50,729 nucleotides of DNA from a virus: positions 1-50,729 of the IMG/VR virus record IMGVR_UViG_3300045988_108242; one strand, given 5' to 3'. The position numbers and the translations under genes were made by a program. The notes below the pieces were generated by a model that did no database searches, had not been told where the DNA came from, and saw only the letters and a program-made list of their open reading frames with translations. Positions 13,084 to 32,204 of the stretch are shown one piece after another; position 1 is the stretch's first letter, and each line of letters opens with the position of its first letter.

Positions 13084-13115
13084 CTTTTACAAGCTTCTAT
13101 TTTACGATTTAAGGC
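13084..13115 (-). repeat. Conserved junction element, copy A
   Basis: Minus strand reads CCTTAAATCGTAAAATAGAAGCTTGTAAAAG. It shares CTTAAATCGT with copies B and C, and AAATAGAAGCTT with copy E. Confidence 0.7.
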
Positions 13116-13120
13116 TGTTT

Positions 13121-13149
13121 ATAATAATAGGGCGGTATTTCTACCACCC
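13121..13149 (-). terminator. Possible intrinsic terminator after the endolysin gene
   Basis: Stem GGGTGGT/ACCGCCC with one mismatch and a 6-nt loop, followed on the minus strand by TATTATTAT. A weak candidate. Confidence 0.35.
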
Positions 13150-13184
13150 CACTAATAAAAATGCTTATATGCCTTAAATAAACG

Positions 13185-14189
13185 CTACTGAATGTATAAC
13201 TGGAACTTATCTATTGCTATTCCAAATTCTCCTGCATATCCATCCATACCACCACTTGTAAAGTTGTCTATCTGTTCACTGTAATATGCTTTACTTGCTA
13301 TCGGAGAAACTCTATAACGTGCCTGTTGGTATTCATACCCATCTGGTGTTATATAATATACTTCTACTGCATCTATTGTTCTTCCATCCCCTGCATATCC
13401 ATTGTTGAAATCATTTATATTACATCCTGTTACATATGGCAACCACCCAACACCTAGGACATGCACCCTGTATTTAACAGAGCCTTTATCTACTTTTATT
13501 GCAACACCTGTTATAGGTACTCCATCTCCTGCGCCTGCAAAACCATTGCAATTTACATCATTTTTGTTTGTTATAAAATCCCACCATCTGTTTCCATTTG
13601 TTTGTACTGCATATGTAGCATTTACTTGTCCTAGACTTTTGTTACGTGCTGTATTTGTTTCTACACTGTAGTTTGTTTTTATACTACTTACTGTACCGTT
13701 TATAATATCCCTTTTGAATGTATTCCAGATACTAGAATCTTTTCCACCAGTACCCCAACCATTCCATCCCGGGCACTGTTTTGTGCATACATCCCAATGC
13801 CGTACTACATTACTTGCCGGAATATTATATTTGTTCATAAGGTACTTTGTAAGTTCTACTACGTTCTTGTAAGTTGCTTCTGCAATAACTCCATTTGTAC
13901 TACACATTTCTATGTTAATACAATTATAGTTTGTTACTTTTCCAAAAAGATTATTGCTACCATAATTTACACCAACACCCCATGAGATGTTGTTATCTTC
14001 TACACACTGGTATATGCTGTTTTCATCAACAAAATAATGTGCGCTACCTCCTCTATATACATCACGGAAATAGTTCGCATTATTTTTAGCCGTATCTGTA
14101 TAATTGCCTGTGTAATGAATTACAATGTATCTTTTTGTATTTCCACCATTTTCAAAATTAACTTTTGTTAAGTCCCGTATGATATTCAT
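13185..14189 (-). CDS. Endolysin: N-acetylmuramoyl-L-alanine amidase (Amidase_2/PGRP) with C-terminal ChW-like wall-binding repeats
   Basis: 334 aa. The N-terminal pattern YIVIHYTGN..SAHYFVD..NIEMC..VVRHWDV..KQCP is the amidase_2 pattern. The C-terminal G.GW..YV...G..G.G..I.A repeats resemble clostridial ChW repeats. AAGGAGG lies upstream. Confidence 0.85.
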   Translation of the reverse strand: MNIIRDLTKVNFENGGNTKRYIVIHYTGNYTDTAKNNANYFRDVYRGGSAHYFVDENSIYQCVEDNNISWGVGVNYGSNNLFGKVTNYNCINIEMCSTNGVIAEATYKNVVELTKYLMNKYNIPASNVVRHWDVCTKQCPGWNGWGTGGKDSSIWNTFKRDIINGTVSSIKTNYSVETNTARNKSLGQVNATYAVQTNGNRWWDFITNKNDVNCNGFAGAGDGVPITGVAIKVDKGSVKYRVHVLGVGWLPYVTGCNINDFNNGYAGDGRTIDAVEVYYITPDGYEYQQARYRVSPIASKAYYSEQIDNFTSGGMDGYAGEFGIAIDKFQLYIQ

Positions 14190-14243
14190 TTGCCTTTAGA
14201 CCTCCTTATTTGCCAATTTAAGACATTTTAATTATTAGAACAA

Positions 14244-14477
14244 CTATTCCTCTGCTTCTACCTCTGAAATCCCTGCAATAGACGTAAGAACACTTACAAC
14301 ACCAGATATTACACTTGCAGAAAGCACCATTTTCCAGTCTACAGAACTAACTAATGTCGCAGAACTAATAACTCCTACAGCGGTTTGCGCCATTGTTTTA
14401 ATGGCTCTTATTCCTGCCGCTTTACACCACTTTACTGTATTCACATTCGGTTTAAATACACAATTCTTAAACATCAT
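14244..14477 (-). CDS. Holin (two TM segments, charged C-terminus)
   Basis: The track ORF 14244..14495 is trimmed to the ATG at 14477, which lies 5 nt after GGAGG. The pattern AAGIRAIKTMAQTAVGVI...VLSASVISGVVSVLTSIAG is holin-like, and the gene sits directly upstream of the amidase. Confidence 0.7.
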   Translation of the reverse strand: MMFKNCVFKPNVNTVKWCKAAGIRAIKTMAQTAVGVISSATLVSSVDWKMVLSASVISGVVSVLTSIAGISEVEAEE

Positions 14478-14799
14478 TTTTTCCTCCATTTCCATTTTGA
14501 ATCTTACATAATTTTAAATCATTTTTCACTTTCACAATTTCTAATTCGTGCCTGTCTAATACTTCCCACTGTTCTCTTTGCCCTTTCTTAACATGTTCTT
14601 TGTATTCTTCAATTTCTCTATTCTGTTTCTCTAATTTATCGTTCTGGTCTTTTATTTCTTTTGCAAGTTGTTCCACTTTTAATGTTAACTCTGTCATTGC
14701 TTTTGTGTTTTGGTTCAATGGTCTGTATATTGCTGTGAATATTCCGATTAAAGAACTTAACCCTATTACCACAATACCAATCATTTCCGCAGTTGTCAC
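14467..14799 (-). CDS. Membrane-anchored coiled-coil protein in the lysis cassette (XhlA-like position)
   Basis: 110 aa with an N-terminal TM segment (IGIVVIGLSSLIGIFTAI) followed by a coiled coil. Precedes the holin. Confidence 0.5.
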   Translation of the reverse strand: MTTAEMIGIVVIGLSSLIGIFTAIYRPLNQNTKAMTELTLKVEQLAKEIKDQNDKLEKQNREIEEYKEHVKKGQREQWEVLDRHELEIVKVKNDLKLCKIQNGNGGKNDV

Positions 14800-14814
14800 A
14801 TTGTTATACCTCCT

Positions 14815-15366
14815 TTAATTTCCAATCGCAATCCAATTGTATGTCGTGCTAGTCATGAATTTGTATTCATCCATTGTTTCTGTCCAATTAAATATTCCTC
14901 CAGACACGCTAAAACCAGACCTATCTGTGATTCCGCAAGATTTTGAGTACACGCTGTAATCACCACAGAATGTCACCTTTGCTTCTTCTACATCTTCGGA
15001 ATACACAGCAGTAACAACACCTACTGATGTGATTTTATCGGCATAGATTATCAGCTTATCAATCTTAGACAAGCCAGTATTGATAGTATGAGATGATGTT
15101 GTTCCTGTTACCACCTTTGTGCCATCACCACTAGATGCTTCCATCGTTCCAACAATTCGCTGTCCACTACTATCATGAGCTGTGACACCAGCCAGCAGAT
15201 TTTCTGGTGCTACAGTGTCTTCTGCAAGATTTATCAGCGCACCAACTATTTGTTTTCCTGTTTTATCATGAGCCAAAGCATCCTCTAAAAGCTGGTCTTC
15301 TGTTACTGTATCCTCCGTCAAATCAAGTAATACCTTGCCTGCATATTCTACTTTATTTACTGCCAT
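14815..15366 (-). CDS. Fibre-like repeat protein (paralogue of 15379..15954)
   Basis: 183 aa with two copies of the DLTEDTVT..LL.G.TAHD..G..IVG repeat. The N-terminus MAVNKVEYAGKVLLDL parallels MSINKVVYGGKTLIDL in its paralogue. Confidence 0.55.
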   Translation of the reverse strand: MAVNKVEYAGKVLLDLTEDTVTEDQLLEDALAHDKTGKQIVGALINLAEDTVAPENLLAGVTAHDSSGQRIVGTMEASSGDGTKVVTGTTSSHTINTGLSKIDKLIIYADKITSVGVVTAVYSEDVEEAKVTFCGDYSVYSKSCGITDRSGFSVSGGIFNWTETMDEYKFMTSTTYNWIAIGN

Positions 15367-15378
15367 GTTTAATCACTC

Positions 15379-15954
15379 CTATCCAATCGTTACCGTAGTT
15401 CCACCAGCAGAATTTTCGGATTCCACATAAGGAATCTTTTCAACTGTAACCTGTGACAGATGCGTATATCCGGTATCCGGAAGAATGGTCTGTTGTACGC
15501 TTGACGGAATGACTGTCTTAGCCTGTGCTTTTACACCCTCACTTCCTGACATACTACCTTTAACACCAAGAATTGTTACACCCTCACGAATGTTCTGTGC
15601 AAGAATCTTTGCTTGCTCTGTCGCATCAATTCCAACCTTTCCAGAACCATCATGATATCCCTGTGGGATTGTATATGAACCATCTTTTGTGATGATTTTA
15701 CCTGTAACAGCTCCATTGTTTGGCATTGTTCCAACAAGCTTTGTACCTCTTGCATAAGCTGTTTTGCCTTTTAAAATCTCTGCAACTGCGGCAGTTGCAT
15801 CATTAGAATCTACGTCAAACGTACACACTCCTGTGACAAATTCTCCGTCTTTTCCATGTGCCGTGATACCGCTCAACAGCTTATCCTCAGTAACAGTATC
15901 GCCAGTCAGATCAATCAATGTCTTTCCACCATATACTACTTTGTTAATACTCAT
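15379..15954 (-). CDS. Fibre-like repeat protein
   Basis: 191 aa with the same N-terminal repeats, then KTVIPSSVQQTILPDTGYTHLSQVTVEKIPYVESENSAGGTTVTIG at the C-terminus. Confidence 0.55.
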   Translation of the reverse strand: MSINKVVYGGKTLIDLTGDTVTEDKLLSGITAHGKDGEFVTGVCTFDVDSNDATAAVAEILKGKTAYARGTKLVGTMPNNGAVTGKIITKDGSYTIPQGYHDGSGKVGIDATEQAKILAQNIREGVTILGVKGSMSGSEGVKAQAKTVIPSSVQQTILPDTGYTHLSQVTVEKIPYVESENSAGGTTVTIG

Positions 15955-15957
15955 ATT

Positions 15958-16248
15958 TTACAATTCCTTTCCAATAAATACAGTCTGCCCACCTTCAAGA
16001 TTTGACACCTCGAAGAATGGAATTTCTTTGATTTTTACGTTTTCTGTCAGAAACTTTTGACGTGTCGCAAGCTCTTGTTTTTCCACTTTTGGTGTAACCG
16101 TATAGTTTCCTTTGTAGTAATCCACTCCAACATTATCTGATACAACCTGTAAGTGTTCAAAGTCAACTTTAATCTTCTCATTTCTTGTTCGAAAATCCAC
16201 GTTCAGTTTTTTGTCAAGCTCTTGAAATGTTACGTCAAATCGCATCAA
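15958..16248 (-). CDS. Small protein sharing the C-terminal IP(Y/F).E..N..GG.TV.IG motif
   Basis: 96 aa. Its C-terminus TVTPKVEKQELATRQKFLTENVKIKEIPFFEVSNLEGGQTVFIG aligns with the C-terminus of 15379..15954. Confidence 0.55.
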   Translation of the reverse strand: MMRFDVTFQELDKKLNVDFRTRNEKIKVDFEHLQVVSDNVGVDYYKGNYTVTPKVEKQELATRQKFLTENVKIKEIPFFEVSNLEGGQTVFIGKEL

Positions 16249-16568
16249 ATCACCCCATCTTTCAAGATTCTACCAACAGATATACTCATGATGTTTGATG
16301 CAAGAGCCTCCCCAGCTACAGTCCGCACTCTTATCTGCATCTCACCATCCGTATGCGGCTTCTGTTCTAATCTTAGTGTGTCCTCTTGTGTTAGAGCAAG
16401 TGAAACGAGTGTACCAGAACAATTACAATCTGATAAGTTTTTTTCCAACATTGTGACGCCATTCTGCGTTATCGTGATGTACATTTCCGCAATCAATGAT
16501 GTATCGAACGGAAGTGTAAACTCTAACATAGGTGTTGTTCCTCTTATCATTCTATCACCTCCAAACAC
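16245..16568 (-). CDS. Small beta-sandwich-like structural protein (putative)
   Basis: 107 aa. The pattern RGTTPMLEFTLPFD...LTQEDTLRL..G.MQIRV resembles small Ig-like phage structural proteins. Has an ATGA-type overlap with its neighbour. Confidence 0.45.
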   Translation of the reverse strand: MFGGDRMIRGTTPMLEFTLPFDTSLIAEMYITITQNGVTMLEKNLSDCNCSGTLVSLALTQEDTLRLEQKPHTDGEMQIRVRTVAGEALASNIMSISVGRILKDGVI

Positions 16569-16577
16569 TTTGTACCG

Positions 16578-16835
16578 TTATAATCCTGTACCTCTTCTAA
16601 TTATTCCATTTGCTATTGTTCTTCCTGTTCCCTGTTCTTCTTTTGTTTCAATACTTACTGGTTCTTTTTCATATGTTTTAAACTCTGGCTCTCTATCCTC
16701 TACAACTGCAAGTGCTAGTTCCAATCCATTATGCAAACCACAGCTATAATCATCTGTTATGTTCTGTACTTGCATTTCTTTTAACATTCCTATTGTTTCA
16801 TGTATTCTCCTGTATTCTTTCCAATATTTAAACAT
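16578..16835 (-). CDS. Hypothetical protein
   Basis: 85 aa, the first gene after terL. Junction element copy E supplies its upstream region. Confidence 0.55.
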   Translation of the reverse strand: MFKYWKEYRRIHETIGMLKEMQVQNITDDYSCGLHNGLELALAVVEDREPEFKTYEKEPVSIETKEEQGTGRTIANGIIRRGTGL

Positions 16836-16844
16836 TCTCTTATA

Positions 16845-16877
16845 CCTCTCTAAGCTTCTATTTGCCGTTTTAAAGCG
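16845..16877 (-). repeat. Conserved junction element, copy E
   Basis: Minus strand reads CGCTTTAAAACGGCAAATAGAAGCTTAGAGAGG. Located between the terL stop and the next ATG. Confidence 0.65.
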
Positions 16878-16903
16878 ATTTCTTTTAGTAGGTTTGCAAT
16901 TCC

Positions 16904-18262
16904 TTATCCTACCTTTGTATTTGCCTTATAATCCTTTAAATCGGCTACTGTATAATTGTTCAATGCATACCACAGGGCTGAAAGTACGTGGCTATCGATG
17001 TTAAATTCATCATATATTATATTACCTTGTTTATCTTTTGCATATGTTAAATCTTTTAACTCCCTTATAGAATTCTTACATTTTGGTGAACATACAATTT
17101 TGTGAAATCTCTTGACTTTCTTTGTCCCTGCAAGCCTACTACCGGGGAACTTTTTACAAGCATACATTGTAAATCCTTCCTGTCGATAATACTGTATATC
17201 TTTTGGAGATGCACTATCGGCAAATATTGGTTGGTTACATCTTTCTGCTCTTTCCTTTACTTTCTGCACACTGTCAAGCTTGCTGAATTTATCATCTGTT
17301 ATATGGTTTCTATACACTTCATCATAGATATATAATATTTTGTTTGTATCATCTACCGCACAACTTATCAATGCATTATAACTTGTTTCAAATCCAAAAT
17401 CCAAACCAAAGAAATGATAATGTGCTGGTATGCTGTTTACCGCATTTGCAAACTCTTTTGCGTTCTTTGCAACTGTAAATTTTGGTAGCACTCTCAAACC
17501 ACTTGCTCCAAACCTTCCCCACCTTGCGACAAGCCATAAATGCATATCGCTATTCTTTAGACTATCCAAACGTTTTATATAACTATCTGGCAAAAATGGA
17601 TTATCGTCCGGCAAACTATGATGATAATACACACCATTCTTTTTATTTACAAGTGTGCGCTTTTTGTATACCTCTTTTTCACTTTGTATTATATGTTCTT
17701 TTCCCTTTTCATCTGTATGTACAAAAAATGTATCATACACCCAGTTCTCTTTCCCGATAGGGTTTGTTGTCATTATGAAATGTAATGTTTTATTCGGTTC
17801 ACGAACACGCCCTAAAAGCTCTGTATATGCCGCAAATGTTATCTCACTACATTCTTCCATCCATACAATACTAACACCATGTACAGACTTAATCTTTTCT
17901 ACATTGTCCAATCCTTTGAATATTATCCTACTGCCATTAGGAAAACGTATCTCCATCGGACTTGCTATTGCTATTACTTCACCATTTGTACTGCTTGTGT
18001 ATCGTGCTTCTCTGGAAGATAAAATTCCTAAACCAGTTAGGATTTCTTTGAATAATGCAAAACAACTTTCACGTATTGTATCCTTTACCTGTCTTACTAC
18101 GAGTGCTGTTCTTTTCTCTTCCAACAATTTAAGTATAATCTTTAACGCTACATGATATGACTTACCAGAACCATACCCACCAAATAATAAATATTGTTCA
18201 TACTCCCAGTCTGTCAAAAAATTTGCAAAACGATTAGAAACATCAATGTTCAATTCTGACAT
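16904..18262 (-). CDS. terL: Terminase large subunit (PBSX/XtmB-like)
   Basis: 452 aa with Walker A (LLFGGYGSGKS) and a C-terminal nuclease region carrying conserved acidic residues. Confidence 0.9.
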   Translation of the reverse strand: MSELNIDVSNRFANFLTDWEYEQYLLFGGYGSGKSYHVALKIILKLLEEKRTALVVRQVKDTIRESCFALFKEILTGLGILSSREARYTSSTNGEVIAIASPMEIRFPNGSRIIFKGLDNVEKIKSVHGVSIVWMEECSEITFAAYTELLGRVREPNKTLHFIMTTNPIGKENWVYDTFFVHTDEKGKEHIIQSEKEVYKKRTLVNKKNGVYYHHSLPDDNPFLPDSYIKRLDSLKNSDMHLWLVARWGRFGASGLRVLPKFTVAKNAKEFANAVNSIPAHYHFFGLDFGFETSYNALISCAVDDTNKILYIYDEVYRNHITDDKFSKLDSVQKVKERAERCNQPIFADSASPKDIQYYRQEGFTMYACKKFPGSRLAGTKKVKRFHKIVCSPKCKNSIRELKDLTYAKDKQGNIIYDEFNIDSHVLSALWYALNNYTVADLKDYKANTKVG

Positions 18263-18331
18263 TTGTTTCCTCTCCTTTTATACAACTATAAGCAAGACAT
18301 AGCTTTTATCTACTACACCTTGCTTATAATT

Positions 18332-18360
18332 ATTATACCATATTTATTTTTGTTATGCAA
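18332..18360 (-). promoter_or_regulatory. Sigma-A-type promoter upstream of terL (TTGCAT-17-TGGTATAAT)
   Basis: -35 at 18360..18355, -10 at 18337..18332. A perfect 10-bp inverted repeat, TATAAGCAAG/CTTGCTTATA (18287..18296 / 18319..18328), begins around the predicted +1. Confidence 0.65.
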
Positions 18361-18363
18361 TAA

Positions 18364-18657
18364 TTATTTTAAAATATTTTCTAAGATATCATTTAATATG
18401 TCTACTGCCATTTCTTTGGTTGATTCATTCATATGCTTTTTGTATTTCTCACCATGAACCAACTCCATACATTCATCCCTATAAATCAATAACACTTGCA
18501 TCTTACGTTGCATCTCTTTTTCTTCGTTTTCATCTTTTGGTTCTTTTTGAATAGTTTCGGATAATAGATAATTCAAAATAACTGACATACTTTCTAAAAG
18601 TGTATCCTGTTTCTTTTCCATTCTTTCTAATGTTTTAATCACTTTATTTTCTTCCAT
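18364..18657 (-). CDS. Hypothetical acidic protein
   Basis: The track ORF 18364..18672 is trimmed to the ATG at 18657, which lies 7 nt after GGAGG. The first ATG at 18672 has no SD. Confidence 0.55.
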   Translation of the reverse strand: MEENKVIKTLERMEKKQDTLLESMSVILNYLLSETIQKEPKDENEEKEMQRKMQVLLIYRDECMELVHGEKYKKHMNESTKEMAVDILNDILENILK

Positions 18658-18708
18658 TTCTTTTCCCTCCATATTGGTTTATTTGTTTTCTATAGGCTTA
18701 TGCCTAAA

Positions 18709-20661: not shown

Positions 20662-20690
20662 ATTATAACATCTATGTTTTGTTTTGTCAA
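20662..20690 (-). promoter_or_regulatory. Sigma-A-type promoter (TTGACA-17-TGTTATAAT)
   Basis: -35 at 20690..20685, -10 at 20667..20662. Confidence 0.75.
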
Positions 20691-20981: not shown

Positions 20982-21791
20982 TTAGATTCCCTTAATAGGT
21001 ATCTTGATAATCGGATTGTAGTCAATGTACTTTCTGTTCTTTCTTGACCTTCCTTTGTTTGATGTATCCAACCTTACAATATTACTACCCCACTTCTGTC
21101 TTAACAATTCAAACTGTTCTTTCTCACGTTCCATATTACGATACATAACACAACCGCCCTTTTGTTCTGACTGTCTACAAACATAATGGTATTTGTTTAA
21201 CCTCAATGCCCCTCTATACAGGTTCATGTTCTGTAAGGTCATGTCATAATCTTCTTTTAACGGAAGTCTTTCATCATATCGAAGTTCATTCCCTTTCAAG
21301 AAACACTGAAAAGGTCCACCTATGTAGGATGTAGTGCTAAATGGAGAATACTGCCGATATGACATTGTATCACTGTTACAATTCAATCCCCAGAATTTAA
21401 AACCCCAATCATTGCACAATAAGGAATAACGATATAAGAAGTCTAGTAGTTCGTCTGATTTTACTTTTACTTTCTCATACGCATAGGTTCCATCCTCTGA
21501 CATTTCAAAGTGTTCTATGGCTCGTAAATCATCATCAATCAATAACACAATGTCTGCACCGTTTTCAAACTCTGTATCAAGGATATAATTACGAACTCTG
21601 CACAGATTTCCCTGTACACCTTTCGGACACTTCACAATATTTTCTGTATGTTTCGGGTTGAAATCCAGATATGCTTCGTACTCTTCTGGTGCAACATAAA
21701 CTTTACAGAAAGGAATATAACTTAATGTCTCCACCTTATAACGCTTATAAGACGGACAAGCAACAATGATTTCTTTTCCCTTATACTTCAT
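20982..21791 (-). CDS. Putative GT-A-fold glycosyltransferase-like protein (DxD motif)
   Basis: 269 aa. The N-terminal strand IIVACPSYKR and the motif ADIVLLIDDDL are GT-A-like. Overlaps the ParB-like gene by 11 nt. The family assignment is unverified. Confidence 0.4.
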   Translation of the reverse strand: MKYKGKEIIVACPSYKRYKVETLSYIPFCKVYVAPEEYEAYLDFNPKHTENIVKCPKGVQGNLCRVRNYILDTEFENGADIVLLIDDDLRAIEHFEMSEDGTYAYEKVKVKSDELLDFLYRYSLLCNDWGFKFWGLNCNSDTMSYRQYSPFSTTSYIGGPFQCFLKGNELRYDERLPLKEDYDMTLQNMNLYRGALRLNKYHYVCRQSEQKGGCVMYRNMEREKEQFELLRQKWGSNIVRLDTSNKGRSRKNRKYIDYNPIIKIPIKGI

Positions 21792-22425
21792 TACCCTGCA
21801 CCCTTTCTAACGCTTTCTGTCCGTCTAGCACCCTTCCCACTCCTGCTCGCATACCGAATGACTTCTTGTTCCCTTCCTTCTTTGTTGGATACGCCTTTGC
21901 TTTCTCGATTCCAAACAATCCCATAGCATTGAACCAATCAATCTTATTGTTGAACTTCAACACAATGTAATTGTTCTCTTCATTCAATATTTCTGTGAAT
22001 GGTACATCTGGTTCAACTTCTATTGTTTCATCTTCCAATGCATCAATACTAAATCCAAACACTTCCATGTCAATGTCTGATTTCAGAAGTTCACTGATTT
22101 CTTCGTTAATCAATGTTTCATCATAACTGGATTCTGCTGTTTTGTTTTCAATCAATCGCCAAGCCTTGATTTGTTCATCTGTCATATCATCCAGACAGAT
22201 TGTAGGCACTTGTGTCAGTCCTGCTTTCTTTGCCGCAAGGATTCTTCCATGACCTTCAACCACATAACCATCTTTATCAATTGCTACTGCTCTGTGTTCA
22301 AAGAATCCAAACTGCTTAATACTGTTCATAATTCTTTCAACCTGTTCTTTCGGATGTTTCTTTGCATTCTTCTTATAGGGTTTTAAATCCTTTATCTGCC
22401 TATATACTATGTTTAGTTTCTGCAT
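21781..22425 (-). CDS. ParB/Srx-fold (ParB-like nuclease domain) protein
   Basis: 214 aa. The pattern LKPYKKNAKKHPKEQVERIMNSIKQFGF...VVEGHGRILAAKKAGLTQVP matches the ParB N-terminal domain often fused to phage DNA methyltransferases. No methyltransferase part is present here. Confidence 0.75.
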   Translation of the reverse strand: MQKLNIVYRQIKDLKPYKKNAKKHPKEQVERIMNSIKQFGFFEHRAVAIDKDGYVVEGHGRILAAKKAGLTQVPTICLDDMTDEQIKAWRLIENKTAESSYDETLINEEISELLKSDIDMEVFGFSIDALEDETIEVEPDVPFTEILNEENNYIVLKFNNKIDWFNAMGLFGIEKAKAYPTKKEGNKKSFGMRAGVGRVLDGQKALERVQGNEV

Positions 22426-23484: not shown

Positions 23485-23513
23485 ATTATATAATATAACA
23501 AAATATATGTCAA
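23485..23513 (-). promoter_or_regulatory. Sigma-A-type promoter (TTGACA-17-TATAAT)
   Basis: -35 at 23513..23508, -10 at 23490..23485. Confidence 0.75.
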
Positions 23514-23586
23514 GTATTATTTTAAAATATTATATAAAAAATTTAGTTTCTTTTATGTGTTCACTTATCCACTGTAATTCTGACTT

Positions 23587-23619
23587 GCTTTCTAATGCCC
23601 CTAATTTACGATTTAAGCC
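23587..23619 (-). repeat. Conserved junction element, copy B
   Basis: Minus strand reads GGCTTAAATCGTAAATTAGGGGCATTAGAAAGC (25 of 33 positions identical to copy C). It is preceded by the hairpin CTAGGATAAATCCTAG. Confidence 0.7.
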
Positions 23620-23698
23620 ATTTTTATTATTTATGCTAGGATTTATCCTAGTTATTGAATTTAATCGCTTATTTTCCCTAGAAAACACATCTAGGATA

Positions 23699-24211
23699 TT
23701 ACTCATAGATTTCACCGCCCCACTCTTCATCTTCGCTTTCTTCCATCCATTCTTCTGCATTTTCTGCTTTCCATATTTCCTCTTCATCTTGCGCTGTAGG
23801 TGTATAACTTTCTCCCTGCGTTACAAGGTTTATAGTTACATTGTTCTGTATCTTTCCTGTTTTCTTGAACATATCCAGTTTATCCATCATTTGCGTTATC
23901 TCTTTTATAGCACCAACGTCCCCTGTTAAACCTTTTTGGAATAATGCAACCATAAGTAAGCTCTGGTTTGTTAATTCTTCATCTGTAAAACCAAAATTTT
24001 TTAAAATCTGTTTTTTCTTATCACTGTTTGTTTTCATTTCCAATAACTGCCGCATACAGTTTTGTAAAGCCATGTTACGTTCTTTCTTTTTTCTTCTTGC
24101 TTCTACACCTTTCATTGCTATCTCATGACGTTCTTCCGGTGTTCTGTCACGCATATTTATAAGCATACCATCTTCATACGGCTTTGGCACTTGTCCTTTT
24201 TTTAATCCCAT
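23699..24211 (-). CDS. Putative terminase small subunit (DUF5681-like)
   Basis: 170 aa. The N-terminal GLKKGQ, the basic helix region and LFQKGLTGDVGAIKEI resemble small proteins found next to terminases. It has an acidic-Trp tail. It lies 5.4 kb from terL, so the assignment is tentative. Confidence 0.45.
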   Translation of the reverse strand: MGLKKGQVPKPYEDGMLINMRDRTPEERHEIAMKGVEARRKKKERNMALQNCMRQLLEMKTNSDKKKQILKNFGFTDEELTNQSLLMVALFQKGLTGDVGAIKEITQMMDKLDMFKKTGKIQNNVTINLVTQGESYTPTAQDEEEIWKAENAEEWMEESEDEEWGGEIYE

Positions 24212-24439
24212 GCTTTGCTCTCTCCTATTCTTTTTATTTGTAATACTAAAATAAGCAGGGGCGAACCCCTGCTATATATTAAACCTTATTGTCTTAGAGC
24301 GATTGAACTCTTAATATATTTTTTTAAAAGTTTCTTACCAATTACGAAGGGGGCAAACAATAAGGTTTATTCCTTTCACTGGCTGACATTATCCGGCTGT
24401 CACTTATTTATAACTATCCTCTTTATAACTCCTATGATT
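24212..24439 (-). promoter_or_regulatory. Structured untranslated leader with internal intrinsic terminator upstream of the terS-like gene
   Basis: Lies between the promoter at 24440..24468 and the ATG at 24211. It contains a 13-bp long-range helix (24280..24292 / 24357..24369), a CCCCC run (24353..24349) and a terminator hairpin at 24254..24273. There is no credible ORF. Confidence 0.6.
24241..24273 (-). terminator. Rho-independent terminator inside the terS leader
   Basis: Perfect 8-bp GC-rich stem AGCAGGGG/CCCCTGCT with a 4-nt loop, followed on the minus strand by TATTTTAGTATT. Confidence 0.8.
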
Positions 24440-24468
24440 ATATTATCATAAAAGTTACTGCTTGTCAA
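24440..24468 (-). promoter_or_regulatory. Sigma-A-type promoter (TTGACA-17-TGATAATAT) driving the terS leader
   Basis: -35 at 24468..24463, -10 TAATAT at 24445..24440. Confidence 0.7.
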
Positions 24469-26255: not shown

Positions 26256-26269
26256 TTTTTATTTCTCCT

Positions 26270-27226: not shown

Positions 27227-27278
27227 AACATTATTCTCCTTTTCTTCTCTTATTGTTTCTCTTTGTTATGTTGTCTTT

Positions 27279-27307
27279 ATACTAACACATTTATTTAGTT
27301 GTGTCAA
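27279..27307 (-). promoter_or_regulatory. Sigma-A-type promoter (TTGACA-17-TGTTAGTAT)
   Basis: -35 at 27307..27302, -10 TAGTAT at 27284..27279. Confidence 0.6.
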
Positions 27308-27314
27308 TACCTTT

Positions 27315-27575
27315 TTAACAAGAACTTGGATTTGTTTTTTCAATTGCTTCATTCAAACAATCTCTTAATTGTATAAGTCCCTCTTTGTCGACTAAACCGA
27401 GTCCACCTTTTAGGAAAATTCTTACTTCTTTTCCATTTTCTTCTGTTACAAGTTGCTCTGTTACTGCATAGCCTTCTAAATCATTTGTTTTAACGTTTCT
27501 TGCTTCTGAAATAACAATATTTCTTTGCTCTTTAAAACGCCTTTTAGAAAGTTCATTATAATTTAATCGTCCCAT
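27315..27575 (-). CDS. Hypothetical protein
   Basis: 86 aa. Confidence 0.55.
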   Translation of the reverse strand: MGRLNYNELSKRRFKEQRNIVISEARNVKTNDLEGYAVTEQLVTEENGKEVRIFLKGGLGLVDKEGLIQLRDCLNEAIEKTNPSSC

Positions 27576-27958
27576 TCTCCTGCACCCCCCTCACTTTCTT
27601 CTACACTTGTGTCGGGAAGTTCAATAATGGCTTGGAATCTTAACTGTATCAATTCTTCATCGACCAAACTGCAAATACTTTCTACATTTACATTATCTGT
27701 CAATGACTTAAAGGGAATTGTTGCATTGCCATCCTTATCGAAGTTAATTGCACCTATTGTAAAAATACCTAAATTCATAGGTTTTTTATCTGGCACTTTT
27801 GCATGAAGTGTAATATCATTGTTCAGACCTTGTAACAATTCAACACTTGTCAGAATTTCATCGTATCGCAATTTGAACTTTACTTGAATTGTTTTATTCT
27901 TTCCAATGCTCAACCCTTCAAATGAAGCAATACCTTGCTGTTTTAATTTTCTCTCCAT
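27563..27958 (-). CDS. Hypothetical protein with an acidic-Trp C-terminus (..GEWDD)
   Basis: 131 aa. Confidence 0.55.
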   Translation of the reverse strand: MERKLKQQGIASFEGLSIGKNKTIQVKFKLRYDEILTSVELLQGLNNDITLHAKVPDKKPMNLGIFTIGAINFDKDGNATIPFKSLTDNVNVESICSLVDEELIQLRFQAIIELPDTSVEESEGGAGEWDD

Positions 27959-28470
27959 CTGCTTTCCTTCCTCCTTTCTTTGTTTTTCTTTTTGAACTCC
28001 TGTTCTCTTTCTGCTCTCTCCAATTCTTTCTGTTTCATGTAAGCCATTCTTGCTTTTAAATTTTCTTTTGTGTTACCCTGCTTACAAATACTATTATACT
28101 TCTTTTCTTCTGGTTCGTCAAGTGATAATTCAAAATTGTTTTGAATTTCTTTCCCTTGTATAAGTGCTTTAAATGCCGCTATATCACTTTCTTTTATTGC
28201 AACCCATACTTCATCGGTGTTAATGAATTGGAAAGCAAATACGGGTAATTTATGAGCTTCTATAGCTTGTGCTTCTAATTGATGCAGTACGCTTTGTTTT
28301 ACACTAAAACTTTCATGGTCTGTACTTTTTAACTCACACAAACAATGTTCGTTTTGTCCATCACCTTTATCAATCCATGTTGCTCCACTGTTTCTTGTCG
28401 ACTCAAAGCCTAATCTGTGCATCACTTCTACTTCATTCTTCCTGTACCATTTTGTGCTACGTTTATTCAT
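27943..28470 (-). CDS. PD-(D/E)xK nuclease, Hjc-like Holliday junction resolvase (putative)
   Basis: 175 aa. The pattern E..V...L....STRNSGATWIDKGD......CELKST fits a GD...E.K catalytic core. Confidence 0.5.
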   Translation of the reverse strand: MNKRSTKWYRKNEVEVMHRLGFESTRNSGATWIDKGDGQNEHCLCELKSTDHESFSVKQSVLHQLEAQAIEAHKLPVFAFQFINTDEVWVAIKESDIAAFKALIQGKEIQNNFELSLDEPEEKKYNSICKQGNTKENLKARMAYMKQKELERAEREQEFKKKNKERRKESRWREN

Positions 28471-28954
28471 GTTTTGTCAACACCTCACACCGTTTTGCAT
28501 ATTTACAAGTCCCACATATAATGATAGGTCTTTTACCATAAGATTTTCCAAAACATCTTTCTCTTTCTTTTGTCTCATTCACACATTCTTTTTCATATAC
28601 GCATAGATTGCATTTTCCATTCCCATCAATATGACAGCCAAAACAATCTAGTCTCTCTTTTCTTTTTTTGCATTCCTTTTTACTGTCACAACATTGGCAT
28701 TCTATATCGTCATCGTCATACATTCCAAAACAATTTTGTTCTGACACTTCTTTCTCTGCATCTCTTGACTTTGTTCTTTTATTTGTTTCGTTCAAAACAT
28801 CCAGAATATCATTTGCTGTTAAAATGTCCAATTTTACAACCCTATTATATTTTTTTGAGTTCTCAATTTCATTCTGTAATTGTTCTGTTAACTGCTCAAT
28901 ATTATATTCCTTTCTAATCACCATTTTTGTTTTACTCCTTCCAAATACCATCAT
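28463..28954 (-). CDS. Cys-rich protein with three CFG-x(n)-C-x2-C-x(5-6)-C repeats
   Basis: 163 aa. Repeats: NCFGMYDDDDIECQCCDSKKEC, DCFGCHIDGNGKCNLCVYEKEC and RCFGKSYGKRPIIICGTCKYAKRC. Confidence 0.6.
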   Translation of the reverse strand: MMVFGRSKTKMVIRKEYNIEQLTEQLQNEIENSKKYNRVVKLDILTANDILDVLNETNKRTKSRDAEKEVSEQNCFGMYDDDDIECQCCDSKKECKKRKERLDCFGCHIDGNGKCNLCVYEKECVNETKERERCFGKSYGKRPIIICGTCKYAKRCEVLTKHE

Positions 28955-29540
28955 TTACTGTCCAGTGTCTTATTTCACCTTTCCACCATTTTGTTATGTA
29001 TCTTTTTTCTCCATTTGTAGAGTAATACACATTATTTTTTAACATTTCCTCTAAATCAAAATCAAATAAAAAATGTTCTGATGGCTGTACTCTTGCAATA
29101 TATCCTCTAATCGCACAATACTTTTGTCGCATATATTCTTTGTCCATTATCCTCTTGTACTCTTTTTGATCTATATCATTTAATAAATTACTATACCAAA
29201 TAAGAATACCTTGCGCGTTTATTATTATTTTACGTTTGTTGCATCTCTGATATTCTCTTCTTGCTAATTGTTCTTTTGTCAACTCATAATCCCTCTTCAA
29301 CATACCATGGTTACCACGCAAACAACCACTTCTTCCAAATGTGTTTTGTTTTTTGTCATAATATTTTTTTACCTTTATTTTATTTTTATCTCGATATTCT
29401 TTTGTCAATAAATTATGACATTTATTACAATAATAATACAATCCATCTGGGTTATTTTTATCTTCAAAGAACATTTCTATTGGTAATTCCCTTTTGCATT
29501 TACTACAAACTTTTGTTCCTTTTTCAAAATCAGCTTTCAT
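28932..29540 (-). CDS. Hypothetical protein with an N-terminal CxxC...CxxC zinc ribbon
   Basis: 202 aa containing KVCSKCKRELPIEMF...DGLYYYCNKCH. No HNH catalytic motif is recognisable. Confidence 0.55.
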   Translation of the reverse strand: MKADFEKGTKVCSKCKRELPIEMFFEDKNNPDGLYYYCNKCHNLLTKEYRDKNKIKVKKYYDKKQNTFGRSGCLRGNHGMLKRDYELTKEQLARREYQRCNKRKIIINAQGILIWYSNLLNDIDQKEYKRIMDKEYMRQKYCAIRGYIARVQPSEHFLFDFDLEEMLKNNVYYSTNGEKRYITKWWKGEIRHWTVNDGIWKE

Positions 29541-29541
29541 T

Positions 29542-29853
29542 TTATTCCTTTCCTAAACTCAACGCTATCATTTGTATATAGTATTTATCATTTTGTTTTA
29601 ATCTGTGCCATAAATCAAAACCTGTTGTTCCATCAAAATCATAGAACACATAATAATAATTTGTTTCCTGTAAAATATATAAACAAACACCCTTTTGTAA
29701 TTCTACTAACTGTTTTGCAAGTTCATCGTAGCTCTTGTCTGTTATAAGGTTTGTATTCTGTTCATAATACAAATAACTATGTATTAGAACTGTTCTTTGT
29801 AAAAACTCTATTCTTTCACGCATTGTCCAATATGTAGGGAATTTAATCCTCAT
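29542..29853 (-). CDS. Hypothetical protein resembling the LigA domain Ia motif
   Basis: 103 aa. FLQRTVLIHSYLYYEQNTNLITDKSYDELAKQLVELQ parallels the N-terminal H.Y.YY....P.I.D.EYD.L...L..LE motif of NAD-dependent ligases. Confidence 0.35.
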   Translation of the reverse strand: MRIKFPTYWTMRERIEFLQRTVLIHSYLYYEQNTNLITDKSYDELAKQLVELQKGVCLYILQETNYYYVFYDFDGTTGFDLWHRLKQNDKYYIQMIALSLGKE

Positions 29854-30394
29854 ATGTTTCTTTCCTTTCTGGTAACTGTGATATTTTGTATGCTAGCTTT
29901 GCACATTTTCTTCTTTGCTTCATTGCTTCTTTTGCCAACATATAATATCTTTTTGGCATAAAATATGAAGATTTTAGAAACTCTTCAATATTTTCTGGAA
30001 TTGGATTATTACATAAAATATTCGATTTACCAATTATCTGTGTATACTCCGAACTATTTTTCGTACTACAATAACCATCTTTCCATAATATTGGACATTT
30101 TAAACATGATGACCAACATTCTTCACTTTCTGAATACTCACAACAAAAACAATAATTTAGAACAGCCGCATTAAAACAATACTCTTTTATATATTCTCTT
30201 TTTAAATTTGCTACTTCTGTTTTTCTTCCTTTTGCATATTGCTGTGCTATCCATATCCACATTTTTCTATGCTGTAATACTGCAAAATCTTTATTGTTTC
30301 TTACTTGACTTAAAAACATCTTTTGTTTTTCTTCTAATGTTGCACACCTTAAAGTATCTAAATGATACTGTTTAATAACTTTTGTTATTTCCAT
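29843..30394 (-). CDS. Hypothetical Cys-rich protein
   Basis: The track ORF 29843..30445 is trimmed to the ATG at 30394, which lies 6 nt after GGAGG and clears the upstream stop at 30406. Confidence 0.6.
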   Translation of the reverse strand: MEITKVIKQYHLDTLRCATLEEKQKMFLSQVRNNKDFAVLQHRKMWIWIAQQYAKGRKTEVANLKREYIKEYCFNAAVLNYCFCCEYSESEECWSSCLKCPILWKDGYCSTKNSSEYTQIIGKSNILCNNPIPENIEEFLKSSYFMPKRYYMLAKEAMKQRRKCAKLAYKISQLPERKETYED

Positions 30395-30405
30395 TTGTTT
30401 ACCTC

Positions 30406-30666
30406 CTATTTTGCAATCACTGATTTTGGAATCCATGTTTTCCAACCTTTTACGTTTCCAACAACTGAACCGCTATCAAGAATAACCTGAATGGCTTTTT
30501 CTGTTTCATTTAAAACTTCTCTTACAATAACTTCTACATATCCGTCTTTATCTGCTGTTAAAACTCCATCAACTCTGCTATATTCTGTTACATCAATGAA
30601 AGTATTATAGCCTTCTGCAACCTCACTTGTTTTATAATAAAACCATTCTTTTATTCTCAATAACAT
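30406..30666 (-). CDS. Hypothetical protein
   Basis: 86 aa, with GGAGG 9 nt upstream. Confidence 0.6.
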   Translation of the reverse strand: MLLRIKEWFYYKTSEVAEGYNTFIDVTEYSRVDGVLTADKDGYVEVIVREVLNETEKAIQVILDSGSVVGNVKGWKTWIPKSVIAK

Positions 30667-30711
30667 TTTGCTTTTCCTCCAAAACTTTTGTTTTTCCTTA
30701 ACTCTATAATT

Positions 30712-30740
30712 ATAATAACATATGTTTTAGTATTTGTCAA
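30712..30740 (-). promoter_or_regulatory. Sigma-A-type promoter (TTGACA-17-TGTTATTAT)
   Basis: -35 at 30740..30735, -10 at 30717..30712. Confidence 0.7.
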
Positions 30741-30744
30741 CACT

Positions 30745-30936
30745 TTAATAATAAATATCTACTGTTTCATTATTTACAAGATGTAAACAATATAACTTCA
30801 TTCCAATATAATAACCAGATGCACCACAATTTTCTAATTCTTCTACAAACTCATTTTCTTCAAGTTCTTGCAATTCTTCTAATGTAACAAATGCTCCATT
30901 AAGTTCCATTAACTGTTCTACTGTATAATTCTCCAT
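30745..30936 (-). CDS. Hypothetical acidic small protein
   Basis: The track ORF starts at a TTG (30951). The ATG at 30936 lies 8 nt after GGAGG. Confidence 0.6.
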   Translation of the reverse strand: MENYTVEQLMELNGAFVTLEELQELEENEFVEELENCGASGYYIGMKLYCLHLVNNETVDIYY

Positions 30937-30977
30937 TTTGTATACCTCCAAATTTTGTTTGCTTTGTTTATGCTTTA

Positions 30978-31013
30978 ATTATATACTATAGGGTTGAACT
31001 TGTCAACCCTATA
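30978..31013 (-). promoter_or_regulatory. Sigma-A-type promoter (TTGACA-17-TATAAT) with the -35 inside an 11-bp perfect hairpin
   Basis: -35 at 31006..31001, -10 at 30983..30978. Inverted repeat TATAGGGTTGA/TCAACCCTATA at 30987..30997 / 31003..31013. Confidence 0.7.
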
Positions 31014-31015
31014 TT

Positions 31016-31318
31016 TTAAATTTTTCCATTATGTCTAAAAACATATGCTTCAATAATATTTCGCATCTTTTTGTAATCTTCATAATATGCATATACAATA
31101 CCATTTATTCTTGGATTGTGTTCAAAATACCACTGTAAATGCTCTGCTTCATCTAATTTCTTTTCACTTTCATCTGTATGTGTTTCCATCATGTTATTAA
31201 AACATTTATCACAATGATTATAAAACACATGTGAATATTTTTCCCATTTTCCTACTGGATACATTTTCTTTCCATTTTCACCAATAATTGTTGTAACTCT
31301 CTTTCTGTAATTTACCAT
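31016..31318 (-). CDS. Hypothetical protein
   Basis: 100 aa. Confidence 0.6.
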   Translation of the reverse strand: MVNYRKRVTTIIGENGKKMYPVGKWEKYSHVFYNHCDKCFNNMMETHTDESEKKLDEAEHLQWYFEHNPRINGIVYAYYEDYKKMRNIIEAYVFRHNGKI

Positions 31319-31371
31319 AACCTATACCAACCTTTCTGTATTCAATCTTTTGTTTTCTTGTTTGTAACTAT

Positions 31372-31400
31372 ATATTAACACAATAATACATAACTGTCAA
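31372..31400 (-). promoter_or_regulatory. Sigma-A-type promoter (TTGACA-17-TGTTAATAT)
   Basis: -35 at 31400..31395, -10 at 31377..31372. Confidence 0.7.
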
Positions 31401-31533
31401 TAACTATTTATAAAATATTTTAATTTATTTGTTATATAAATCAGACTAACGTCTGTTATATATTATTATGTTCTTTTAATCCCCTTTAATAAAGAAATAT
31501 ATAAAGAAAGAAAATTCCCCTTTATTTAACATT

Positions 31534-31818
31534 TTAAAAGTTTATTTGTTTTATTCCACGTTGTTTACAATATTGTTTTAAAGATTTTATATTATTTCTT
31601 TTAAAGATTTCTCTTGTTCTATAAATAACATCATCTAAATTTACTAATGCTTTTTGTTTTGAAACATATCTAGTATATTCAATTGCAACCCCTGTTTGAT
31701 AATGTGTTATAGAATAGCACCTGTCTGCTAACTTTACAATAACAATGTTTTTATATTTTGTTTTATAACATGGTTTCTTTATAACCTTTTTACCGAACGC
31801 AAGTATATTACATTCCAT
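31534..31818 (-). CDS. Hypothetical basic protein
   Basis: The track ORF 31534..31848 is trimmed to the ATG at 31818 (MECNILAFGKK...), which lies 5 nt after AGGAGGG. The longer form would translate junction element copy C. Confidence 0.6.
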   Translation of the reverse strand: MECNILAFGKKVIKKPCYKTKYKNIVIVKLADRCYSITHYQTGVAIEYTRYVSKQKALVNLDDVIYRTREIFKRNNIKSLKQYCKQRGIKQINF

Positions 31819-31847
31819 TCTAACCCTCCTATTTAACGATTTAAGCA
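31815..31847 (-). repeat. Conserved junction element, copy C
   Basis: Minus strand reads TGCTTAAATCGTTAAATAGGAGGGTTAGAATGG. Its 3' part supplies the SD and start codon of the downstream gene. Confidence 0.7.
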
Positions 31848-31907
31848 ATTTTTATTTATAATGCGATAATTTATACATTTATAAACATAATTCCTTTAAA
31901 AAGCATT

Positions 31908-32150
31908 TTACAGCTTTGTTCTATGTTTCCTGCACCTTTTATTTTTACCGCTTTTGTTATAATATTTCGCTTTCTGTTCAAATGCCTTTTCACTATATTT
32001 TTCTAAATGTATACAATTCTTTAGTATACATTGTCTTTGTTTTACAAGTTCTTTATTCAGTTCCCCTTTATGCTCTTTATAATGGCAGTAACCTATACTA
32101 TTATTTATTATGTTTCCTTCTATAGATATTCCTTTCCTGTACATATCCAT
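31908..32150 (-). CDS. Hypothetical basic Cys/His-containing protein
   Basis: 80 aa, with TAGGAGGA upstream. Confidence 0.6.
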   Translation of the reverse strand: MDMYRKGISIEGNIINNSIGYCHYKEHKGELNKELVKQRQCILKNCIHLEKYSEKAFEQKAKYYNKSGKNKRCRKHRTKL

Positions 32151-32171
32151 TCCTCCTATAACTTTAATATG

Positions 32172-32204
32172 CCATATAATGTCCCTATTTAAACGAATAA
32201 GACA
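32172..32204 (-). repeat. Conserved junction element, copy D (most diverged)
   Basis: Minus strand reads TGTCTTATTCGTTTAAATAGGGACATTATATGG. Starts right after the -10 of the promoter at 32212..32240. Confidence 0.55.

Follow-up and report, generated by a model that had tools for sequence, protein, structure and literature searches.

Introduction

Short sequences that recur in one orientation along a phage genome have been described in several forms, and a repeat of this kind is the subject of the present study. It lies in the virus record IMGVR_UViG_3300045988_108242 of IMG/VR (50,729 nucleotides, the whole of which was analysed and is called the window below), spans roughly 26-40 bases and is present there in at least six copies. 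The closest described phenomenon is the family of start-associated sequences (SAS) and extended start-associated sequences (ESAS) of Cluster K mycobacteriophages. These occur in many oriented copies, with single inverted copies away from gene starts, and their function is unknown (Pope et al. 2011; PMC3203893). The SAS itself comprises 13 bp (GGGATAGGAGCCC), is located 3-7 bp from the start codon and contains the core of the Shine-Dalgarno (SD) sequence (PMC3203893). A second precedent is provided by the stoperators of Cluster A phages, 13-mers which are bound by the helix-turn-helix (HTH) repressor of a temperate phage (gp71 of L5) and number more than 20 copies (PMC9283540). Stoperators are found in short intergenic spaces and at promoters, their orientation tracks transcription, and some of them double as operators (PMC9283540).

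The element of the window resembles the SAS in being an asymmetric repeat with many copies, whose orientation is tied to the genes and which is only rarely inverted. It likewise stands at gene starts, where it overlaps SD-like sequence, is conserved across phage subgroups while the downstream genes differ, and is absent from the structural half of the genome. In contrast to the SAS, its core is A/T-rich and 26 bp long, the start codon follows at 9-36 nt, two of the copy types lie off gene starts, and both the sequence and the host phylum are unrelated. With the stoperators the element shares its asymmetry, its dispersed and intergenic copies and an orientation tied to transcription. However, no repressor, HTH protein or integrase was found here, the copies number 6-10, and the site is longer and composed of several blocks.

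Promoters of the T7 and SP6 type are asymmetric blocks of about 23 bp which end in (T/A)ATA, are followed by a purine-rich start and are co-oriented and intergenic. The first-pass annotation of the window had likened the element to such promoters of single-subunit polymerases. The layout bears this out, as an asymmetric block ends in AAATA and is followed by purines, beyond which the sequence diverges, but the cognate polymerase gene is lacking. Only ATA|GR is common with T7, T3 and SP6, the genome carries perfect host-type promoters throughout, and scans of the approximately 75 open reading frames (ORFs) with Pfam, PHROGs and NCBIfam revealed no recognisable gene for a single-subunit RNA polymerase, as that annotation had already remarked. 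In the promoter early stem-loops (PeSL) of T4-type phages a stem-loop is combined with an early sigma-70 promoter, and the boundary sequences of lambdoid phages are conserved sequences at gene borders. The element is like mosaic cassettes and boundary sequences in that a short conserved gene-border sequence has differing genes on one side, whereas the description of PeSL fits four hairpin-promoters of the window and not the element. New here is a conserved, oriented cis-element family in gut phages, which has a known kind of phage feature as its counterpart.

The repeat family and its copies

The repeat is a real, conserved and selected family of orientation-dependent cis elements. The first-pass annotation had quoted five copies (A to E), and all five sequences were found at their minus-strand coordinates. 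As a full count, five proved too low, because two strong copies (F and G) and two inverted copies (anti-1 and anti-2) had been missed. In the following list, C1 denotes the C of the motif CTTAAA, from which positions within the element are numbered (+1).

13083..13125, minus strand: copy A, C1 of CTTAAA at 13113; 19.3 bits, E 5.7e-5 (distant-only profile, see below)
14192..14233, minus strand: copy F, new, C1 at 14222; 23.1 bits, E 3.6e-6
16844..16887, minus strand: copy E, anchor at 16874; 20.7 bits, E 2e-5
23587..23628, minus strand: copy B, C1 at 23617; 18.5 bits, E 1e-4
31815..31857, minus strand: copy C, C1 at 31845; 24.7 bits, E 1.1e-6
32171..32213, minus strand: copy D, weak and divergent (CTTATTCGTTTAAATAG), C1 at 32201
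37751..37794, minus strand: copy G, new, C1 at 37781; 25.8 bits, E 5.1e-7
47701..47745, minus strand: copy H, doubtful and D-like (CCCTTATTTGTTTAATTAGAACGTTTAGAAAGG), upstream of ORF 47697..47317
32246..32280, plus strand: anti-2, inverted and partial (TGCTTTAAAATGGCAAATA); 10.4 bits, E 0.035
47782..47812, plus strand: anti-1, inverted; 13.1 bits, E 0.005

For comparison, related loci were collected from IMG/VR: 92 through the anchors terL and PolIII-alpha, and another 51 by using the element core as a DNA pattern. A first profile made of the five quoted copies revealed the two further sites F and G. The iterated profile gave 74 matches at E < 0.01 over the 92 related loci, and all of them (74/74) lie on the gene strand, in agreement with the co-orientation claimed earlier. 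Decisive was a profile that contains the copies of distant relatives only, the window sequence and its close relatives being excluded. With this profile, six copies of the window (G, C, F, E, A and B) are found again, with scores of 18.5-25.8 bits (E 5e-7 to 1e-4), whereas the maximum over 100 shuffles of the window that preserve dinucleotides was 12.5 bits. Scanning of the relatives with the copy model showed the element to be conserved across the phage family.

The 10-mer CTTAAATCGT has exactly three exact occurrences in the window, all on the minus strand (A, B and C). With one mismatch allowed there are 11 matches versus 4.5 +/- 1.9 in shuffles, and none of 100 shuffles reaches 11. The enrichment of shared words over shuffled sequence holds for this 10-mer but fails for the 12-mer AAATAGAAGCTT, which is exact in A and E and is not enriched with two mismatches. 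An exact search of IMG/VR for the core with 16 specified bases returned mostly members of the same phage family, with many contigs from one IMG dataset; the matches outside the family were judged, without inspection, to be compatible with chance.

Two of the listed copies need a cautious reading. Copy D is regarded as a divergent member because it scores poorly when the D-type copies are left out of the model, with a position weight matrix (PWM) log-odds of 6.6 and a partial nhmmer match at E ~4. Copy H is kept as a candidate only, since its PWM score is below background.

Anatomy and conservation

For the analysis of conservation, 53 distinct copies were aligned without gaps and weighted. The consensus core is AAAnTGnCTTAAAnCGnnAAATA (26 bp), which is followed by RRRGS. 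Conserved are AAA at -7 to -5, T and G at -3 and -2, CTTAAA at 1-6, (C)G at 8-9 and AAATA at 12-16, and further downstream RRRGS at 17-21, T at 23, A at 27 and G at 30. The A/T blocks follow each other at about 11 bp, which is about one helical turn, and the spacers between them are unconstrained. Even phages that are nearly identical differ in their spacers; the F copies, for example, have TTGG, TAGG, TGGA or TGTA at positions 8-11.

Local alignments between different sites extend from about -10 to -30 on the one side to +16 to +34 on the other, and many of them end exactly at +16, after AAATA. Beyond this position the copies fall into subtypes, which continue with GAAGCTTAGAGAGG, with GGGGCATTAGAAAGC or directly with GGAGG. 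Between distant phages the identity within the element is 0.65-0.91 versus 0.29-0.83 in the flanks, and the element has the higher value in most comparisons; downstream of F the identity falls to 0.47-0.59. The genes that follow the F and C sites in different genomes are non-homologous (for C of the MECNI- versus the MEKFT-type). The same short sequence thus stands beside non-homologous genes, with a break of homology at its edge, as is typical of recombination boundaries. Individual sites come and go, with differing downstream genes, and therefore the element also marks exchange points. From the earlier idea of a recombination or homing boundary we retain this much, namely an evolutionary consequence that is seen in the non-homologous downstream genes and in the end of homology at +16.

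Position of the copies relative to genes, promoters and terminators

An SD sequence and a start codon are located 9-36 nt past A16 in 43 of the 66 distinct sense copies (oriented loci), at distances that are type-specific and variable; the others are mainly of the A- and B-type. Terminator-like hairpins occur within 130 nt upstream of 12 out of 45 distinct cores versus 8 out of 72 gene starts of the window (within 150 nt). No robust copy was detected by profile scans of the window in the early promoter cluster or inside the 16-kb structural block. In the L044 and L071 groups of relatives, no good sigma-70 promoter was seen by eye between the terminator and the C-type copy, where no formal scan was made. 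The more distant relative L088 has a copy about 150 nt ahead of a sigma-70-like promoter, within a long region without coding sequence. As the copies are coding in differing frames or are untranslated, and only B is truly coding, their common denominator is the nucleic acid and not a peptide. Three neighbouring features are needed for the description of the single copies.

13013..13041, minus strand: perfect TTGACA-N17-TATAAT promoter downstream of copy A
23485..23513, minus strand: perfect TTGACA-N17-TATAAT promoter downstream of copy B
47736..47762, minus strand: strong intrinsic terminator that closes the late operon, between anti-1 and H

Copy A lies 14 nt past the terminator hairpin of the endolysin gene and 72 nt upstream of the -35 box of its promoter (13041..13013). 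It has no start codon downstream, and its position is the head of the structural operon, which runs from portal to tail. Copy F is placed between a holin-like ORF (14495..14244) and the endolysin start at 14189, with AAATA directly before AGGAGG, the SD. It is kept in the relatives L001, L002 and L053 with a freely varying spacer, and in L036 and L039 a different gene is found downstream of this site. Copy E begins 27 nt past the stop codon of terL, and its 3' part TTAGAGAGG is the SD of an 85-aa ORF (16835..16578). It is canonical in two groups of relatives, orthologous in the L034 group, where it overlaps the terL stop codon, and degenerate in block 1 in the L005 group.

Copy B is located inside a small ORF (~23706..23530, 58 aa), whose ATG overlaps the stop of ORF 24211..23699, and stands 104 nt upstream of the perfect sigma-70 promoter 23513..23485 (95-104 nt if relatives are counted). 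The small ORF is conserved at the amino-acid level in all lineages (...ESGLKGQINGLQRLSVLEWI..EHTEQDELF...). This ORF is unannotated; the window has a version with a shortened C-terminal part, and the 3' end of the ORF in relatives overlaps a perfect promoter.

Copy C is the best conserved throughout the phage family. Directly behind its AAATA come GGAGG and then ATG at 31818, the start of a highly conserved 94-aa protein that contains Cys. Copy D starts about 4 nt past the predicted start point of a promoter with TTGCTA-N17-TATAAT (32240..32212) and lies upstream of an 80-aa ORF (32150..31908). Copy G is located in the 3' end of a DUF3310 ORF (38369..37731), in a different frame, and gives the SD of RecA (start 37741). 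Its occurrence is confined to genomes with an inserted DUF3310 gene between PolIII-alpha and RecA, an arrangement seen only in the close group of the window; in the L069-L077 group RecA directly follows PolIII-alpha. Copy H overlaps the 3' side of the terminator that closes the late operon.

Taken together with the first-pass annotation, the positions relative to the terL, lysin and portal genes had been given correctly, and inspection of the sequence confirmed that the 3' half supplies the SD in C and E. The wording that the copies sit exactly at module junctions was too loose, since B is inside a conserved small ORF and G is held by the 3' end of another ORF.

Inverted copies

The stop codon of the last late gene (48256..47825) is 12 nt ahead of anti-1, which in turn precedes the terminator 47762..47736. 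RNA from the gene strand would read AGCUUGUAUUUUAAGAUUUAAG at this place, a sequence that differs from the reverse complement of copy A at 2 of 23 positions. The anti-1 locus occurs in three sequence variants among the relatives, and blocks 0-2 are kept in all of them while the spacers differ. Together with H, anti-1 forms a head-to-head pair with the C1 positions 51 bp apart. A similar pair is formed by anti-2 and D, with 50 bp between the C1 positions; here anti-2 lies between a terminator (32291..32270) and the promoter of D. Its score of 10.4 bits is below the shuffle maximum of 12.5 bits, which belongs to a different model, and we regard it as moderate evidence. In a second group of relatives, an inverted copy is found past a terminator, about 58 bp from a C-type copy. 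That the same blocks are conserved whichever way the element points favours its recognition as duplex DNA, with selection for RNA complementarity as an alternative explanation of the blocks in the inverted copies.

Adjoining anti-1, between the inverted copy and the late terminator, there is an invariant UCCGCUUAUGCGUGA (47790..47763; relatives L070-L086). It is conserved in three groups of relatives with differing flanks and could form a small CGC/GCG hairpin. The anti-1 region folds better than shuffled sequences (z = -3.7), mainly owing to the terminator.

RNA structure and candidate reading factors

Rfam scans with gathering scores and with E-values yielded only tRNAs and chance-level matches, and RNAalifold found 0 pairs on the copies. 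With no Rfam match and no consensus structure, a structured RNA is not supported.

Three further ideas on a common basis of the copies were rejected. A hairpin GYCTT/RRGRC pairs in 67% of cells versus 61% in shuffles and 58-60% after one-column slides, with one compensatory change, in the D-type copies, and was discarded as unsupported. A peptide motif was dismissed on account of three different frames or no translation at all, B alone being truly coding, and a mini-ORF (ATG-NCT-TAA) over block 1 because its start codon is not conserved among the copies.

The gene behind the best-conserved copy was inspected as a possible source of a binding factor.

31818..31534, minus strand: 94-aa protein encoded behind copy C, carrying invariant Cys and His residues

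This protein has more than 300 homologues; among the 120 matches listed, the identity is 77-90%, and most of them are on contigs of up to ~50 kb. Its AlphaFold model is confident (pLDDT 89) and consists of four strands and two helices. No PDB fold match was obtained at E <= 0.001 and no match in Pfam, PHROG or NCBIfam, and with regard to a binding factor these searches are uninformative.

Sigma-70 promoters and other transcription features

The genome contains 12 perfect TTGACA-N16-18-TATAAT sites, and all of them are confined to the gene strand.

46460..46433, minus strand: perfect sigma-70 site
46079..46051, minus strand: perfect sigma-70 site
45518..45489, minus strand: perfect sigma-70 site
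45157..45129, minus strand: perfect sigma-70 site
44766..44738, minus strand: perfect sigma-70 site
41154..41126, minus strand: perfect sigma-70 site
31006..30978, minus strand: perfect sigma-70 site
23513..23485, minus strand: perfect sigma-70 site
20690..20662, minus strand: perfect sigma-70 site
13041..13013, minus strand: perfect sigma-70 site
10026..9998, minus strand: perfect sigma-70 site
2042..2013, minus strand: perfect sigma-70 site

Ten of the twelve have an A/T-rich upstream region with a recurring ATTTAAAATA-like stretch; the sites at 10026 and 2042 are inside coding sequence and may be chance matches. From these twelve promoters it is clear that the host sigma-A polymerase is used throughout the genome. 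The element is a different matter: the best sigma-70 score upstream of each copy equals the genome background (median 7.5), with D alone above it (10.5), so that TTGACA/TATAAT promoters do not explain the repeat, as had been stated at the outset. If block 3 is taken as a -10 box, inspection places the start point downstream of the SD or the AUG of copy C.

Several known signals were compared with the element and discarded. The sites of sigma-54, sigma-B, sigma-D, sigma-H and ECF factors, the T4 MotA box and the SPO1 gp28/gp34 sites have the wrong spacing, and IHF, cre (CcpA) and LexA boxes gave no fit, in each case by eye. A sigma-A/sigma-70 promoter was ruled out for want of a suitably placed -35/-10 hexamer pair, the scores being at background level except for D. 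The promoters of clostridial TcdR-type (group 5) sigma factors, with the consensus TTTACA at -35 and GTTATA or GTTAAT at -10 (PMC4031146), were rejected because no TTTACA is present at the required distance in the aligned copies.

Four promoters of the window have their -35 box inside a GC-rich hairpin followed by T's, e.g. GGGGTTGACAAAACAACCCC, in the manner of a combined terminator and promoter.

45522..45503: hairpin-promoter, -35 box in the hairpin
41158..41137: hairpin-promoter, -35 box in the hairpin
35421..35396: hairpin-promoter, -35 box in the hairpin
31013..30987: hairpin-promoter, -35 box in the hairpin

Another observation concerns the region 24468..24212 on the minus strand, where a promoter (TTGACA-17-TAATAT) is followed by a leader of about 190 nt without an ORF. 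Within the leader there are a long-range inverted repeat with perfect arms of 11 bp (AAACCTTATTG ... CAATAAGGTTT) and, directly ahead of the 170-aa terS-like gene, a strong terminator (24273..24254); no Rfam match was obtained at gathering score. By its sequence it looks like an attenuator or a small RNA that would control entry into the packaging genes.

Possible function of the element

We tentatively favour the possibility that the element is a promoter-like transcription signal which is specific to this phage family and is read with an unrecognised factor. A role at the level of transcription would fit the distribution best, as the copies lie outside the early cluster, A stands at the head of an operon and several copies follow terminators. 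Such an orientation-dependent signal in the DNA would account for most of the features, i.e. the blocks, the orientation, the distance to the SD, the end of homology, the placement and the inverted copies. We infer its identity as a promoter, the transcription start and the reader as follows. The element would act in cis and be read as duplex DNA in one orientation, most likely as a promoter of the middle or late type, with the 26-bp core as the part that is recognised. RNA synthesis may start in the purine run right after AAATA, at +17, in a T7-like layout, or else at A12-A14 of AAATA, if the element works in the manner of an extended -10 region (TGn plus the hexamer CTTAAA); either start would keep every downstream SD within the transcript. 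As reader we propose the host RNA polymerase, redirected by a small phage protein, because the sigma-A promoters of the phage are perfect, the element has no -35/-10 pair and no phage polymerase is encoded. An end of homology at +16, before the purine run, is expected if the sequence downstream is gene-specific transcript, and the copies A, B and that of L088, being upstream of strong sigma-70 promoters, are arranged like tandem promoters. Since the same sequence heads many expression units, it may as a secondary effect serve as a patch of homology where downstream genes get swapped. The phage-specific promoter or activator site, one of the options of the first-pass annotation, is thus favoured by the distribution and by the T7-like layout and is weakened by the fact that no such polymerase is encoded. 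An extended version, in which a promoter class of T7-like layout is served by a new small protein that retargets the host polymerase (or by an unrecognised polymerase) and the conserved inverted copy at the close of the late operon yields an RNA (antisense or 3'-end) by which late transcription is coupled back to the same signal, strikes us as quite doubtful.

A number of observations speak against a promoter. Perfect sigma-70 promoters are already present ahead of late genes such as portal, so that a second promoter class is not obviously needed, and the copies E, F, G and C lie within arrays of co-directional genes, in which no promoter is required. Copy E is absent in the L012-L027 group, where a hairpin takes its place and the downstream gene is retained. 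In C and F the SD would stand at the very 5' end of the RNA, the inverted copies would fire into gene-free antisense DNA, and CTTAAA is a poor -10 hexamer for any known sigma factor. Finally, the approximately 75 proteins include none that was recognised as an RNA polymerase, a sigma factor or another DNA-binding regulator.

The main rival explanation, which we consider unlikely, is a polar protein-binding site on the DNA, an operator or a roadblock similar to a stoperator. A phage protein on the asymmetric core would block or modulate polymerase that crosses from one unit to the next, and A, B and the pair anti-2/D would be operators. This agrees with asymmetric blocks spaced by about one helical turn with unconstrained spacers, with dispersed intergenic copies oriented by transcription, with the retention of the same blocks in inverted copies and with the position of A, B and the L088 copy upstream of strong promoters. 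Further support comes from anti-2 and D, which flank a promoter head-to-head at 50 bp, from anti-1 and H at 51 bp, and from the precedent of the L5 stoperators with the same placement and orientation rule (PMC9283540). However, no HTH, repressor or integrase domain is found in any scanned ORF and the phage looks lytic, there would be little to block at copies that follow efficient terminators, and no candidate binder emerged, the 94-aa protein being without a structural relative. An action at the RNA level is rather improbable in our view. Here the element would be a leader that enhances translation or stability upstream of the SD, or a site for an RNA-binding protein or an endoribonuclease that cuts near AAAUA|G. 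The strict sense orientation and the SD and start codon 9-36 nt behind 43 of 66 copies, with the SD abutting AAATA in C and F, are what such a leader would show, and the similarly distributed SAS of Cluster K, including its rare inverted copies, was suspected by its authors to have a role in translation (PMC3203893). Yet the distance from the core to the SD and AUG is variable and has no fixed register, the copies of the A- and B-type are conserved without a downstream start codon, and the same blocks in inverted copies are left unexplained. There is also no conserved RNA structure, and the 16-kb structural block has no copies despite its many translation start regions.

We give little credence to the view that the copies are nothing but linkers or relics of recombination, leftovers of one gene-start region or of the small ORF of B that were spread by recombination and whose only role now would be to supply homology for the exchange of modules. 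The element does stand ahead of non-homologous genes (two after F; MECNI- and MEKFT-type after C), the extent of homology differs between pairs of copies, A resembles a decayed E copy without its gene, G came along with the inserted DUF3310 gene, and in the reading frame of B, positions 7 and 10 show the variability of third codon positions. Relics would not be expected, however, to show block-wise conservation with free spacers across lineages, non-coding and inverted copies included, better conservation than the neighbouring sequence in most comparisons, or a strict orientation with non-random placement. Least credible of all appears an antisense regulon, in which a stable anti-1 RNA would pair with sense copies in several mRNAs and so alter translation or direct cleavage. 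Anti-1 matches the reverse complement of copy A at 21/23 positions, occupies the same place in three groups of relatives and is part of a conserved non-coding stretch with the invariant UCCGCUUAUGCGUGA and a strong terminator, a region that folds better than shuffles (z = -3.7). But the energies predicted for duplexes with leaders that bear the element (-18 to -26 kcal/mol) are not better than those of shuffled seeds (the best of which average -23.7), a shared target of 26-40 nt far exceeds what seed pairing needs, and no Rfam match exists. Moreover, the close relative L078 has a different anti-1 variant, whereas its sense copies are by eye nearly the same as those of the window, and therefore seed and targets do not appear to covary. 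Anti-2 and the inverted copies of the second group of relatives are also situated past terminators and not before them.

Genome organisation and relatives

The window of 50.7 kb has a G+C content of 32%, and every plausible gene is on the minus strand. First in transcription order is a group of small genes.

46460-44738, and 41154, minus strand: small early genes behind perfect sigma-70 promoters

After this early cluster follow a DnaG-type primase, PolIII-alpha, the DUF3310 protein, RecA, an exonuclease, an N6-methyltransferase and an HNH/NUMOD4 endonuclease, and then small Cys-rich genes, RNase H and a 170-aa ORF, which had been called terS-like in the first-pass annotation. This ORF is without a Pfam match and has a single PHROG match of unknown function. 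It is followed by a ParB-like protein with a TET-associated glycosyltransferase, by two tRNAs and by terL, and behind terL by tail-fibre-like fragments, the holin-like ORF, the amidase endolysin and the portal, head, tail and tape-measure genes. The tail genes run over the window ends up to 48256..47825, where the strong terminator 47762..47736 closes the late operon. Because these genes cross both window ends, the window is a circularly permuted whole genome. Only PolIII-alpha (908 aa) and the tape-measure protein (886 aa) exceed 530 aa.

The lysis cassette (holin-like ORF and amidase) and the tail-fibre-like fragments are placed between terL and portal (window 18262..11398). The order terL-lysis-portal is kept in most of the relatives examined; in L050 portal directly follows terL. 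The phage is a member of a large uncultivated gut family. Among GenBank phages no annotated close relative was found, the only match being one of 76% over 900 bp to the Clostridium phages CS266P1-4.

Three close relatives deviate at terL (L004, 4868..7198; L030 and L042, 10001..12213): the match to the protein ends at residue 427 or 351, and the element behind terL is about 1 kb farther away than expected. This suggests that terL of these phages may carry an intron, an intein or a homing-endonuclease insertion. In the window, a free-standing HNH endonuclease with a NUMOD4 motif, of the homing-endonuclease type, is encoded at 33569..32481, directly upstream of the region with the terminator, the inverted copy anti-2, the promoter and copy D. 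A protein with a ParB-N domain adjoins the TET-associated glycosyltransferase (22425..20982), and an N6 DNA methyltransferase is located elsewhere (34350..33574). The pair and the methyltransferase suggest a possible module for DNA hypermodification.

Significance

The phage family is abundant in human-gut metagenomes, as seen from hundreds of near-identical homologues of one small protein. The element defines candidate expression units in these phages, namely the genes for recombination and for packaging, the lysis cassette and the head of the structural operon, and it marks places of gene swapping between related phages. As a short and specific sequence it is a bait for finding its reader. 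A role as RNA element or polar roadblock, if proved, would make it the counterpart among Firmicutes to the SAS and stoperator repeats of mycobacteriophages. If, on the other hand, the favoured promoter-like signal with a redirected host RNA polymerase holds true, the element would provide a new handle on transcription in Clostridia.

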